NCBI GenBank assembly: GCA_000004695.1
Contig: CM000154.2
Location: 576,001-640,000, forward strand
Direction: 5' to 3'
From: Dictyostelium discoideum
Taxonomy: Eukaryota
DNA: 64,000 nt
The notes beneath the pieces were generated by a model. That model did no database searches and was not told the DNA's origin. It saw only the letters and a list, made by a program, of their open reading frames with translations. How positions within the stretch are numbered: position 1 is the first letter of the stretch; each line of letters starts with the position of its first letter. Positions 895-6,099 of this stretch are shown here, in pieces. A program made the position numbers and the translations under genes.

Positions 895-3800
895 TTATTC
901 TTTGTTGTGTTGTTTTAATCTAACTGCAAAGTTACTCAACAACTTTTTATTTAATTTTTTCTTGTAAAATCTATATGATATTGCAAAAACAATTGCGGCC
1001 AAGAATACAAATGAGCCTATAACAATACCAACTATTTTAATTGTTGATAAACCAGATTTTTGGTTACACACTGAATTTGGATTATCGTTTGCAGAATCTG
1101 GATCTAAAATTAAACTAAAATCTGGATCAATTTGAGCTAATTTTGAATATTGTGGAATAGTTATGCCAACATATGATTTAATGTTATAATTTTCATCGAT
1201 CCCAATTTCATTGAAATCACTACCCAATAAAACATTTGAAATGGAAGTTGATGTATTATCTAAAAGTGCTCTCTTTATAAATCTACCATATAATGAACGA
1301 TTTTCAATTTGAATTTTTAAATAGTTATTATCATTAAAATCATCAAAGTTTTTAACTGAACAAACACCTTTATCTTCAGATTCGAATAATGCTGACATTA
1401 CTAATTGAAGTTGACTTAATTTGCTTGAAAAAGGATATTCTGTTATTTCAATAGTAAATTTAATTGTTGATGGGTTCATTATTAATTTTTGTTTTGCAAA
1501 TTCAATACTTGTGCTCTCATTAAACCATTCAATTATAACATTAATATTAACTATAATTGGTGAATTAGATGGTGTTGTTGTTGTTGTTGTTGTTGTTGTT
1601 GTTGTTGTTGTTGTTGTTGTTGTTGTTGTTGTTGTTGTTATGTTTGTATAATATTGACTCTTTGTTGATGAAATTTGATTGAATACCCAACTATCAAATA
1701 TAAATATTTTAATTTGTTTACCATCAAAGTCTAATTCCCTTAAGGAAACAATTGATACCAATGATTTAAATAAAACATTATTTGTACCTTCACCTGTAAT
1801 TGGTATTTCTGTAGTTGGTTGTGATGTATTTGTAATTGGTTGTGGTAATATAATGAGTTGTGACGAACAATCTAAACCAATCCACGGAGAGAAACATATA
1901 CATTCACCATTTGAACCACATGTACCTTTATTAATTCCACCACATTGTGGATTACCTAAACATTTTGGTTTTGATGTTGATGATGGAGTTGGAGTTGATG
2001 TTGGAGTTGGAGTTGATGTTGGTGGTAAGGTTGGTGCATTTGAAGGAGTGAATAGTATTGGTGAAACTGTAACTGTATTTGAAAGTTCGGTATTATTTCT
2101 TATTAAATAAACATTAAAATCTAAAAAAGTTGGTGATATATTAATTATTACTACAAGAGGTGAAGCGAAAAGCACTTGGCCACGTTGAGTTGTACCATTT
2201 CCATAGGTAACATACGATTCTGTTACAAATTCTCCATTTTTACAAAAAATGATTAATCTACCACCCAATGTTGTAATTTTTTCAGTTGATATAATTACAG
2301 TTTTATTCATTGATAATTCAGTATTTACATAATAATAATTTGGAGCAATTGATGTTAAATCTACATTTGAATAACCAACATAATCACCATTAACATTAAG
2401 TATACCATAAAGTGAATAGGATAATTGGCCTGGATAACCGAATCCCAATGGTAAATTTGCATCACAATGATAAACTATACTTTTATTACTTATAATTGAT
2501 TGAATTTTTGATTGACATTCAAAAGTTTCTAATCTCATTCCAACTATATAAACAATTGGTAATTGATCAGATCTTAAACCATAGATGGTATCGGTTACTT
2601 GAAAATCAAATGAAATTGTTCTACTAATATCACCAACATCAATTGATTCATTAATATTTAATGATGCATTAAATGTTAGATTTGATAGAATTGACTTTAA
2701 ATTTCTTTTTTTCTTTGAATTTTCTCCATATCCTCCATTATTATTATTGTTTTGATTTTTTAATAAATGGTTACTTGAAACTCTAACACTACTTGTTGTT
2801 GTTGTTGTTGTTGCTATACCACTAAAAACAGTTGATGTAGGATTAGGTCCAGTAGCTACTAATGTTATTGAAAAATCAGGAGTTTCAGCCTTTGTTAAAT
2901 TAGATGGAGTTGTTGAATTTAAAAATGATCTTAAAGGGTTATTAATTGGAGATGGATTTTTTTCAAAAATATTATAAATTGATTTTATACCATTTATATC
3001 TTCCAATTCTAAATAAACTATTCTATAGGATTGTTCTATTGATGGTAAAGTAAAATTAAGGAAATAAATTCCATTTAATAAATTTCCAGAATCTATATTG
3101 ATTGATGTAAAATTCTTTTTAAAAGTTGATTTATCTAAATTTCCAATTAATTTAATAAATCCTTTATTAAATCCATTAAAGTCATCTTGAATAGTAAATA
3201 ACCAACCTCCACCAACTGATTTAATATTTGTAACCATTGGCCCTAAATTATCTAAATCTATTATATTAAATAATTAATTATTAATATTATTATTTATGAT
3301 TAATGGTTATATGATGATGATTATTATAATAAAATAAAATAAAATACAAACTTGTTAAAGTTACGGTAAGTTGAGTTGGTAAAAAACCACTTAATAATGA
3401 GGTTTTAGAACTTGTAATAATTGAATATTGAATATTACCAAATAGATTTAATTTTGGAAGAATAAACCAAGCTTCATATAAATTTAAAGTTTCATCCCAA
3501 ATGATTGGAAATAATGAATCCACATCAAAACTTAAGTTTTGATCTTGATTATTATTATTATTATTATTATTATTATTATAATTATATTTATATGAAATTG
3601 GATCCATTAACCTAAATGCCATCGGTTTTCCAATTGGTATATCATCAGTTAAACTAAATCTTATATAATTATATGAGTTATAATTTGTTAAATCAATATT
3701 ATTTGTTGAAAATGTTAAATTTTTGATATTACTATAATTTATAACTTTTTTTTTTTTTTTTTTTTAAAAAATAAGAAAAATTAATAATAATAATAATAAA

Positions 3801-6099
3801 ATTTTTAAAATTTTTAATACTTACCACTTTTAAAACTTGAAGGTAAATTGAAAATTAATAATGATGGTGAAATAATTAAAATGTCACCTTCATTAATTAT
3901 TCTTTCATTATAATGTATATCAGAAACTATAATTTTAATTGGTAATAATGCATTAATACGTAAATGCCAAGTACCATTGAAAATGGTACCATATGTTAAT
4001 GATTTTGATCCTGTATAAATTTCAAATGGTGATGAATTTTGATCAATAAAAACTTTTGATACACCAGATTCATCAGTTATATCTAATTTTAAAACAAATA
4101 GTGGTCCTGATAATTGAATAAATTCATATCTTATAATTTCTGGTGGTGATGTATCATTAATCATTGATGCTATTTAATAAAAATTGTTTTTTTTTTTTTT
4201 TTTATTAATAATAATAATAATAATAATAATAATAATAATAATAATAATAATAATAATAATAATAATAATAATAATAATAATAATAATAATAATAATAATA
4301 ATAATAATAATAATAATAATAATAATAATGCATACAAATGATATTGATGGGAATGGATGAACTTTCATCTAATTTAAAGAATGGATAAAAACCATTTGAA
4401 AAATATTGAGTTTGACTTTGACTCCATGAAAAAAATGGAAATGCAAATTTAAATGTACAACTACCACTTAATAATCTTGAAACATAACCAAATGGGAAAC
4501 CTCTAATAAATGAATTTGATTGGAATTGAAATTGAAAATCAAAATAACCACATCCATCAATAGTTGGATTAAATAGAGCACTATCATAATTTTCTTTTAT
4601 ATTTGCATAAAAAATCAATTTTGTTAATATATTACTATCTGGTGTAAAATCTATAAAAAAAAAAAAAAAAAAAAAAAAGAGAGAAAGAGAAAAAAAAAAA
4701 AAAGTATTAAAATGTTAATATAATTATTATATAAATATGTATGTATGTATGTATGTATGTATGTATGTATGTATGTATGTATGTATGTATGTATGTATGT
4801 ATGTATGTATGTATGTATGTATGTATGTATGAATATATTAAAATGATATATTTACCAGTAATATTAAAAATTGGTGTTGTTAAAGTAGTAATTATTGGTT
4901 GTAATGAATTTGAAGTAGCAAATTTAAAAGAATAACTATCATTCTCAACTAACCTTTTATCACTTAATAAAACAGAATATGTCATTTTATTGGCATTTCC
5001 AAATATTGGGACACAATTTGTATAGATGGATGGTGAAATTGGAATATATTGATATGGGTAATTATCTGTAGAGTTTGTAACAAAAGTCATCACTGGTGAT
5101 AATCCATTTCCTGATTCTTTTACATTGATTGAATTTGGATAATATTTAATATCGTCAATATTAACATTTTCATTTTTATCTTTTTTTTTTTTTTTTTTTT
5201 TTTAACACTATTAGTAAAAATTTAATGAAAAAAAAATATATATATATATTTCTCTATATATATATAATTTTAACATACAATAAAATGGATTTTTTGATGA
5301 AACTATAATATTATTAGGATAAAATGTAAATGAAGCATCCCAAGTTTGACTATATATATATTTTTCAATATATTCAGGGTCCCAAATAAATTCATATTGA
5401 TTACCTGTAATTAATGTTGCTACACCTTCATTTGAAACTAATTTATCCTTTCCTTCTGTATTTGATTCTATTATTGAATAATATTTATTTGCTGAAATGA
5501 ATGGGTATTCATTTAAAAACTTTATGTACAATGAAGAATTATCTGAAGCTAATTTTTGAAAATTGAAAAAAAAAAAAAAAAAAAAAAAAAAAAAAAAAAA
5601 AAAAAAAAAAAAAAAAGGGAAAAAAAGTAAAAAAAAAAAAATAATTAATTTTAGAAAAAGAAAAATAATATAAATAAAAAAAGAATAAATTATAAATAAT
5701 AATTAAAAACTTACATATACAATTTAATTTTAATTGGTAATATGAATTATTATTATTTTGAATTGTTAAATTTATATTTGTTTGTGCACTTTCAATTTTT
5801 ATAGAAAATGAATAAATAAATTGATATGCTGAAATTTTTTCACCTTCAACAATAAAGGAATTTAAAATAGCATCGCTTGATAAAATTATTGGAGGTGTAA
5901 TTGGATCGGAATTATCAAATAATAAGTATTTAAAATTAAAACTACATTCCAAATCCGATGAAACATATCCAGTATATGATTGATTTTGAAATACATCATA
6001 TAAAATTGAATTTCCATTTGTAATACAAACTAATTGTGCACTAAAATAATTTATATAAAAAATTAAAATAAAAAAAATTAAAAAATTAAATGATTTCAT
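895..6099 (-). CDS. Seven-exon gene for a large (~1464 aa) type I transmembrane glycoprotein with a signal peptide, a long N-glycosylated ectodomain, an EGF-like Cys module, a poly-Thr linker, one TM helix and a short basic cytoplasmic tail
   Basis: Exons (minus strand): 6099-5715, 5548-5279, 5179-4856, 4650-4336, 4169-3825, 3744-3352 and 3257-895 (stop 895-897). Donors are GTAAGT, GTATGT, GTAAAT, GTATGC, GTAAGT and GTTTGT, and acceptors are ..TTAG, ..AAAG, ..ATAG, ..ATAG, ..AAAG and ..ATAG. Every intron is phase 1 and the frame is continuous through each junction (e.g. ..PFY|Y|KNENVNIDD.., ..FKSG/V/INYSNIKN..). Exon 1 encodes MKSFNFLIFFILIFYINYFSAQL (signal peptide). The last exon encodes CLGNPQCGGINKGTCGSNGECICFSPWIGLDCS (EGF-like), T24 and IVGIVIGSFVFLAAIVFAISY (TM) followed by RFYKKKLNKK. 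Introns 3 and 4 carry (TGTA)n and (AAT)n microsatellites. Confidence 0.7.
4202..4330. repeat. (AAT)n/(ATT)n microsatellite, ~43 units, inside intron 4 of the EGF/TM glycoprotein gene
   Basis: Perfect trinucleotide run visible in the sequence. It is flanked by the exon-4 donor (4336) and the exon-5 acceptor (4170). Confidence 0.95.
4738..4830. repeat. (ATGT)n/(TACA)n tetranucleotide microsatellite (~23 units) inside intron 3 of the same gene
   Basis: atgtatgtatgt.. run. The ORF track translates it as MYVC/IHTY repeats, but it lies between the donor at 4856 and the acceptor at 4651. Confidence 0.95.

Follow-up and report, generated by a model that had tools for sequence, protein, structure and literature searches.

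A predicted ComC-family membrane glycoprotein gene of Dictyostelium discoideum and the uniformly phase-1 introns of its family

Introduction

In genes of the immunoglobulin superfamily (IgSF), one domain is encoded per exon, and each such exon is flanked by phase-1 introns. Modular exons of this symmetric 1-1 class are usually treated as an animal feature tied to the origin of receptors and of extracellular matrix proteins. Mobile domains in animals favour phase-1 introns (PMC3488318), and the genes of the sponge aggregation factor (AF) have domain-bounded exons with same-phase introns, phase 1 in A. queenslandica, a pattern that has been interpreted as a relic of duplicated or shuffled exons even though the domains are little alike in sequence (PMC5400394). 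The brown-algal ROCO genes with leucine-rich repeats (LRR) encode one repeat per exon with a uniform intron phase, in that case phase 2 (PMC11378527). Here, we describe a gene in a stretch of 64,000 nucleotides (nt) from Dictyostelium discoideum (contig CM000154.2, positions 576,001 to 640,000; hereafter the window), which is predicted to encode a type I membrane glycoprotein of the ComC family and whose six introns are all in phase 1.

The family member comC itself encodes a protein with a signal peptide, a transmembrane (TM) segment and EGF domains, and is restricted to group-4 species (PMC4931340); the comC mutant shows aberrant aggregation (PMC2873529). The literature on a role in aggregation or communication concerns comC itself, and nothing was found on the paralogue in the window. 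As for intron phase, the general eukaryotic ratio is about 5:3:2 (PMC2834692). No specific report on intron-phase statistics or exon shuffling in Dictyostelium was found in the searchable literature, and PMC1574350 contains no Dictyostelium data.

A seven-exon gene of the ComC family

On the minus strand of the window, seven exons between positions 895 and 6099 splice into a single uninterrupted frame of 4395 nt, with 1464 codons before the TAA stop (Table 1). The six introns run from GT to AG, with lengths of 80-205 nt and a G+C content of 3-17%, compared with 19-27% in the exons. Each of them splits a codon after its first base (phase 1), with S, Y, D, S, V and N as the split-codon residues at the six junctions, and exons 2-6 are each a multiple of 3 in length. 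A preliminary description of this locus had given six junction coordinates, which proved exact, as the spliced frame is open and the orthologous junctions match; its account of a 1464-residue glycoprotein with signal peptide, EGF and TM parts, uniform phase 1 and symmetric 1-1 internal exons was likewise correct. The seven disconnected open reading frames (ORFs) that it had pointed to, several with bogus starts, are indeed what the ORF list holds at the locus, four of them with TTG or GTG pseudo-starts. An exact look-up of the 1464-residue product in protein collections returned no identical record. Plus-strand ORFs also occur inside the gene and are translations of simple repeats.

The closest relatives of the window gene are annotated genes of D. 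discoideum, D. cf. discoideum and D. citrinum. These orthologues (P0001 and P0005 from two other D. discoideum strains, P0002 from D. cf. discoideum and P0003 from D. citrinum), at 95%, 87% and 78% identity, are colinear with the window protein and align over all six junctions with zero indels there. When each protein was mapped exactly, with splicing, onto the DNA of its own locus, the four orthologous loci showed the same six introns, all in phase 1. Exons 2-5 measure 270, 324, 315 and 345 nt in the orthologues, with the exception of exon 4 in D. citrinum (318 nt). Per-segment alignment found these four exons to be free of indels between loci except for that one added codon, exon 2 being constant at all four loci, and found indels that are not multiples of 3 in every intron. 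The length of exon 6 ranges from 366 to 393 nt in the orthologues, in steps that are multiples of 3, and that of intron 1 from 133 to 179 nt in the other genomes. The exon-1 end recurs in the orthologues, and 6 paralogue lineages have it at alignment column 183. At junction 6, the intron-less paralogue P0020 (QLRIDKTKFDSYGPIVTNI) aligns without a gap with the spliced window sequence (QLTVTLTNLDNLGPMVTNI). Since paralogues without intron 4 or intron 6 read across the corresponding junction in one exon, the upstream ORFs are part of the same gene and not of a separate one, an alternative that the preliminary description had named. Judged from these comparisons of sequences, the seven-exon model is almost certainly correct.

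All four Pfam domains of the protein fall in exon 7, each above its gathering score. The hydrophobic N-terminus (MKSFNFLIFFILIFYINYFSA), the single TM segment and the short basic tail, read directly from the sequence, together indicate a type I topology. The first 678 residues (exons 1-6) gave no match in a Pfam search, and neither DUF7743 nor DUF8390 matched the window protein at E<=1. Taken together, the locus is predicted to be one intact gene of seven exons whose product is a type I membrane glycoprotein of the ComC family. The N-terminal half, used as query in an exhaustive profile search, returned 39 representatives, about 12 of them colinear over the whole length, and all representatives whose source was looked up came from Dictyostelium (D. 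discoideum, D. firmibasis, D. purpureum and D. dimigraforme).

The window gene is an uncharacterised member of a known family, and its orthologues are already public as 'hypothetical' or 'EGF-like domain-containing' proteins. It is probably not comC itself, because its match to the ComC supersandwich domain is weak (40 bits, against 159.6 in P0022) and it has neither the TIG nor the LRR_ComC part found in the comC-like branch. By analogy with comC, its product may function on the cell surface while cells aggregate and develop, either in adhesion or in communication between cells. No paralogue of the gene was found elsewhere in the window by tblastn. Other ComC-family paralogues stand in head-to-tail tandem arrays at the loci L003 (D. 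citrinum, three in a row), L006 (D. cf. discoideum), and L007 and L008 (D. purpureum), and the D. purpureum neighbour of P0022 has an LRR_ComC, TIG, EGF and ComC_SSD architecture.

Intron phase across the family

The phase-1 pattern belongs to the whole family and not to the window gene alone: 37 of 37 introns are in phase 1, at eight distinct alignment positions in seven lineages and five Dictyostelium species. The window gene and its four orthologues carry six introns (J1-J6), as does P0028 of D. purpureum. There are five in P0004 of D. citrinum (without J4) and in P0007 of D. firmibasis (without J6), and four in P0020 of D. cf. discoideum (without J4 and J6) and in P0014 of D. purpureum (without J2 and J6). 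P0022, from the comC-like branch of D. purpureum, has seven, namely J2-J6, one in the exon-4 equivalent (L008 1706-2090, with exons of 165 and 138 nt) and one that separates the supersandwich domain from the TM segment (L008 5134-5202). Two paralogues were left out of the survey, P0009 (from AX4, with no gene on record) and P0034 (its gene model is not exactly mappable and looks mis-annotated). The variation in exon number that had been expected among paralogues is thus present, from 5 to 8 exons, and comes about through the presence or absence of introns.

The same phase-1 positions recur in D. purpureum and in paralogues that share about 25-33% identity, and comparison of the gene structures therefore indicates that the common ancestor of the family already had the six introns. 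The differences between paralogues would then be precise intron losses, and a patchwork of introns kept or missing at fixed positions fits repeated loss from an intron-rich ancestor; in the 3' half, introns would have been lost, or may never have been there.

As a local control, a crude phase-neutral scan identified 12 other candidate introns in the window, in phases 0/1/2 = 3/5/4. The chance that six introns of six fall in phase 1 is P ~7e-4 under the 5:3:2 ratio and ~5e-3 under this rough local control. For eight independent positions that are all in phase 1, P is 7e-5 to 9e-4 at a phase-1 frequency of 0.3-0.42.

Exons and beta-sandwich modules

We consider it rather probable that the uniform phase of this ComC-family gene is the trace of an N-terminal ectodomain built by tandem duplication of phase-1 exons, followed by precise intron losses. 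The N-terminal half would have grown by duplication of phase-1-flanked exons, each encoding a beta-sandwich of the immunoglobulin-like (Ig-like) or fibronectin type III-like (FnIII-like) kind. Recombination in introns of the same phase would preserve the frame, and the copies would have diverged past recognition at the sequence level, except for exon 5 and DUF7035.

Introns 4-6 match curated Pfam domain limits within 1-2 residues. DUF7035 starts at the residue after the split codon of intron 6 in P0028, P0004 and P0022 and two residues after it in the window gene, and in P0020 and P0028 DUF7743 takes up the segment equivalent to exon 5. A comparison of exon-sliced family alignments by hhalign matched exon 5 to DUF7035 with a probability of 90% (E 1.4e-6), a link confirmed by Pfam, in which one stretch of P0023 is matched by both DUF7743 and DUF7035. 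Both of these homologous modules start directly after a phase-1 intron. Exons 5 and 6 together align colinearly with DUF7035 and DUF7034 (E 2e-4). These profile alignments point to one duplication, that of exon 5 and DUF7035.

An AlphaFold2 model of P0001 residues 22-800, built from a 20-sequence family alignment, was all-beta, with a mean predicted local distance difference test score (pLDDT) of 69.7 and a predicted template modelling score (pTM) of 0.69. The pLDDT was about 76-85 in exon 2 and 80-90 in exon 5, and exon 6 and DUF7035 were also modelled well. Exons 2-6 encode 90-131 residues each, with 7-10 predicted strands apiece. It is blocks of 6-8 predicted strands inside each exon that support the boundaries at introns 1-3, which we infer from the model to lie between domains. 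In Foldseek, the model matched the Ig and FnIII chains of CEA, MDGA1, PirB, VEGFR-1 D1-6 and KIT with E from 1e-9 to 1e-5, and with low template modelling scores, as expected of flexible multi-domain strings. No Ig or fn3 match to the window protein was found in Pfam at E<=1, and the likeness suggested by the model is one of fold, not of demonstrated membership.

The sole foreign match of the N-terminal half was P0039, a bacterial amidase/Big_13/dockerin surface protein, in the exon-4/5 region; DUF7743 matches the Ig-like repeats of P0039, a hint of a relationship between the Dictyostelium module and the Ig-like (Big) domains of bacteria.

Several observations weigh against duplication as the origin of the pattern. 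In the profile-profile comparison, all other module pairs were insignificant (E > 0.01), and the alignment of exons 5 and 6 with DUF7035 and DUF7034 reached a probability of just 45%; with a single significant module pair and this two-module alignment, serial duplication of all modules is not demonstrated. The confidence of the AlphaFold2 model is moderate overall and poor in exon 4 (pLDDT 31-58). Two tests that are weak in themselves gave P ~0.08 for junctions lying in linkers, on secondary structure alone, and an alignment gap density that is not consistently raised at junctions. The additional phase-1 intron in the exon-4 equivalent of P0022 sits away from any obvious domain boundary. The phase background for Dictyostelium is composed of the general literature ratio and 12 heuristic local introns. 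Finally, the profile search with the N-terminal half found no module in an unrelated eukaryotic gene family: all eukaryotic matches were colinear ComC-family proteins or fragments of them, and all family members share the same colinear module order. The preliminary description had taken the symmetric exons as the signature of exon shuffling. What stands of this reading is the symmetry of the phase-1 exons and one pair of homologous modules; modules moved between genes were not found, and shuffling between genes is not supported. Serial duplication of the whole N-terminal chain can nonetheless be reasonably inferred.

Alternative explanations

The alternative that survives best, which we still regard as unlikely, is that independent intron gains, or chance, made all the introns phase 1 with no tie to module duplication, and that this uniformity was simply inherited thereafter. 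Most of the modules lack mutual homology, and neither the nucleotides flanking the junctions nor the split-codon residues share a motif pointing to a common origin. The 37 introns do not count as independent observations, and 6-8 ancestral events suffice for this account. Against it stand the low probabilities calculated above for six and for eight positions, the three introns that agree with curated domain limits, and the position of exon 5 and DUF7035, each right behind a phase-1 intron.

That selection maintains the symmetric exons as cassettes, with developmentally regulated skipping of single Ig-like modules giving in-frame ectodomain isoforms of varied length, seems improbable. Any skip of exons 2-6 would stay in frame, and chains of modular beta-sandwiches tolerate the loss of a domain. 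However, the protein collections contained no shorter protein or transcript-derived fragment of the gene, and several paralogues have fused adjacent exons by intron loss with all modules kept, which makes the introns look dispensable.

The introns of the gene also carry repeats. The preliminary description had called two of them almost entirely microsatellite, which is adequate for intron 4, where Tandem Repeats Finder detected (TAA)41 (ATT in the sense direction) and simple repeats make up 85%, and is overstated for intron 3, where (TATG)24 (sense ATAC) accounts for 47%, or 71% with the homopolymer. Its expectation of length polymorphism was borne out, as repeat lengths differ between strains. 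Counted by eye, the (ATAC)n array of intron 3 has about 17-24 copies in three D. discoideum strains, and it is absent in D. cf. discoideum and D. citrinum. The (ATT)n array of intron 4 is shared by all 5 genomes, that of D. citrinum with about 11% exon divergence included; its place in the intron is constant and its length differs. In intron 5, counts by eye gave about 4 copies of (ATT)n in the window, about 8 and about 31 in two D. discoideum strains, and about 30 in D. cf. discoideum. Intron 6 of D. citrinum is 559 nt long (L002 5599-6157) and nearly all (ATT)n, with about 160 copies by eye.

From this strong variation between strains and species (80-173 nt in intron 5 and 94-559 nt in intron 6), it could be argued that microsatellite length in introns 3-6 tunes splicing and thereby causes expression differences between strains. 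We find this very improbable, and the suggestion of the preliminary description that repeat length modulates splicing is unsupported: introns with short and with long arrays alike retain the donor, the acceptor and the A/T-rich tracts at the 3' end, the coding sequence has stayed conserved throughout the strains, and the repeat load is ordinary for the window. Simple repeats occupy 66% of the introns of the gene and 60% of other non-coding window DNA at <=12% GC, and (TAA)41 ranks only ninth in length, behind eight longer arrays of period 2-6 nt in the window, seven of which are of the AAT type. Simple repeats constitute about 14% of the D. discoideum genome (PMC10755179), and across the genus they are polymorphic and consist mainly of A/T, TA and AAT motifs (PMC13487327). 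The intronic microsatellites would thus be neutral, fast-evolving filler typical of the genome.

In a comparison of window positions 1-9100 with L001 and L004, from two assemblies labelled D. discoideum (ACTFIR and ACTFIW), divergence was about 2% in the exons and about 2.7% in the flanking gene. A hyper-polymorphic recognition locus, as tgrB1/tgrC1, was considered and rejected, since the flanking gene is equally diverged. A divergence of about 2% seems high for strains of one species.

Hardly credible, finally, is an error in the gene model itself, with exons 1-6 as a separate gene or an extension into the 373-residue ORF upstream: one public annotation (P0002, 1811 residues, L005 3001-9832) does fuse the two genes, but it needs a 28-nt exon and non-consensus donors (GTGATTCT, GTTTGTAG) and was rejected as an annotation fusion, while four other genomes have two genes annotated at the equivalent locus, the upstream ORF has its own ATG, hydrophobic N-terminus and stop codon, exon 1 opens with a canonical signal peptide that is kept in orthologues and paralogues, and in paralogues single exons run from the N-terminal into the C-terminal half.

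Feature coordinates and the rest of the window

The features of the gene and of its product are listed in Table 1. The upstream ORF (6459-7580, minus strand) encodes a secreted protein rich in Thr and Cys, which gave no match in a Pfam search. The window as a whole has a G+C content of about 20%, with poly-Asn and poly-Thr coding tracts, which together with its closest relatives mark it as nuclear DNA of Dictyostelium. Its sole GC-rich island (36% GC) lies at 25565-28219 on the minus strand and holds an 884-residue ORF that matches phosphoenolpyruvate carboxylase along its entire length (PF00311, 1051 bits). A 1923-residue ORF at 46124-51895, also on the minus strand, has bacterial-type alpha-2-macroglobulin domains (bMG10, A2M and MG2) and might derive from an ancient lateral transfer. 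Scans of both strands of the window for Rfam families and tRNAs found nothing.

Table 1. Predicted features of the ComC-family gene in window coordinates; residues (aa) are numbered on the spliced translation.
Feature	Position	Strand	Description
Complete coding sequence, ComC-family type I membrane glycoprotein	895..6099	-	ATG at 6099, TAA at 897-895; spliced translation, Pfam, orthologues
Exon 1	5715..6099	-	385 nt; signal peptide (aa 1-21, 6037-6099) and first beta module; ends in phase 1
Intron 1	5549..5714	-	166 nt, phase 1, GTAAGT..TAG, 7% GC; long T run (plus-strand A run 5566-5641)
Exon 2	5279..5548	-	270 nt, 90 aa, symmetric 1-1; predicted beta-strand block
Intron 2	5180..5278	-	99 nt, phase 1, GTATGT..AAG
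Exon 3	4856..5179	-	324 nt, 108 aa, symmetric 1-1
Intron 3	4651..4855	-	205 nt, phase 1, GTAAAT..TAG; (TATG)24 at 4736-4831
Exon 4	4336..4650	-	315 nt, 105 aa, symmetric 1-1; poorly modelled segment
Intron 4	4170..4335	-	166 nt, phase 1, GTATGC..TAG; (TAA)41 at 4206-4329
Exon 5	3825..4169	-	345 nt, 115 aa, symmetric 1-1; Ig-like module, DUF7743 equivalent, DUF7035 homologue
Intron 5	3745..3824	-	80 nt, phase 1, GTAAGT..AAG; short (ATT)n
Exon 6	3352..3744	-	393 nt, 131 aa, symmetric 1-1; beta module with poly-Asn insert
Intron 6	3258..3351	-	94 nt, phase 1, GTTTGT..TAG
Exon 7	895..3257	-	2363 nt, 787 aa plus stop; several domains without introns
DUF7035 (PF23034)	2902-3252, aa 680-796	-	82.7 bits, cut-off 27
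DUF7034 (PF23033)	2311-2664, aa 876-993	-	96.2 bits, cut-off 27
Pro/Thr stalk	1963-2034	-	read from sequence
EGF-like DUF7949 (PF25820)	1858-1962, aa 1110-1144	-	49.6 bits, cut-off 27; six cysteines; CLGNPQCGGINKGTCGSNGECICFSPWIGLDC
ComC supersandwich domain, ComC_SSD (PF22933)	1108-1782, aa 1170-1394	-	40.1 bits, cut-off 24
Poly-Thr run inside ComC_SSD	1573-1638	-	read from sequence
TM segment	973-1035, aa 1419-1439	-	21 hydrophobic residues; read from sequence
Basic tail	898-972	-	25 residues; read from sequence

Significance and comparison with known systems

The gene itself is a matter of routine annotation, and there is no indication of a new molecular mechanism. The mildly interesting point is the family rule and what it says on intron and domain evolution: the family-wide phase-1 regularity is real and apparently unreported, a fresh instance of a known regularity outside animals. 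The ComC family may even be an independent, non-animal case of one beta-sandwich domain per phase-1 exon, convergent in Amoebozoa, although we advance this only tentatively. If true, duplication of phase-1-flanked exons would have assembled a cell-surface family limited to group-4 dictyostelids, and a mechanism usually credited with the extracellular proteins of animals would have been used convergently in an aggregatively multicellular lineage. A clean social-amoeba example, with about 20-40 genes per species, would be a small and tractable system, and it could serve to study same-phase domain duplication, the rate of intron loss in an intron-poor genome, and convergence with multicellularity.

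With the bacterial Ig-like (Big) domains, the window gene has only a remote similarity, which may reflect common origin or convergence; in bacteria these domains have no introns. The nearest described system is the Dictyostelium ComC family (DUF7743/DUF7035/DUF7034/DUF8390/DUF7949/ComC_SSD), which shares with the window gene the domain set and its order, the signal peptide, the single TM segment and the short tail, and which is restricted to Dictyostelium species, as are the relatives of the window gene. The brown-algal ROCO LRR genes are also a non-animal case of uniform phase, but differ in phase 2, in exons of 72 nt, in encoding intracellular and mutually homologous LRRs, and in documented alternative splicing. 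The sponge aggregation factor genes (the Amphimedon AF locus) likewise encode cell-surface, aggregation-related proteins with same-phase exons, whereas their domains are Calx-beta, Wreath and VWA/VWD, often spread over three-exon units, and they belong to another kingdom. Compared with the animal class 1-1 module genes (the IgSF and FnIII receptors CEA, NCAM and KIT), the window gene is amoebozoan, has no Ig or FnIII Pfam match, has modules that were not found shuffled into other families, and encodes half of its domains in exon 7 without separating introns; what it shares with them is an extracellular chain of beta-sandwiches, alike at the fold level, encoded by exons of about 90-130 residues that are symmetric and separated by introns all in phase 1.

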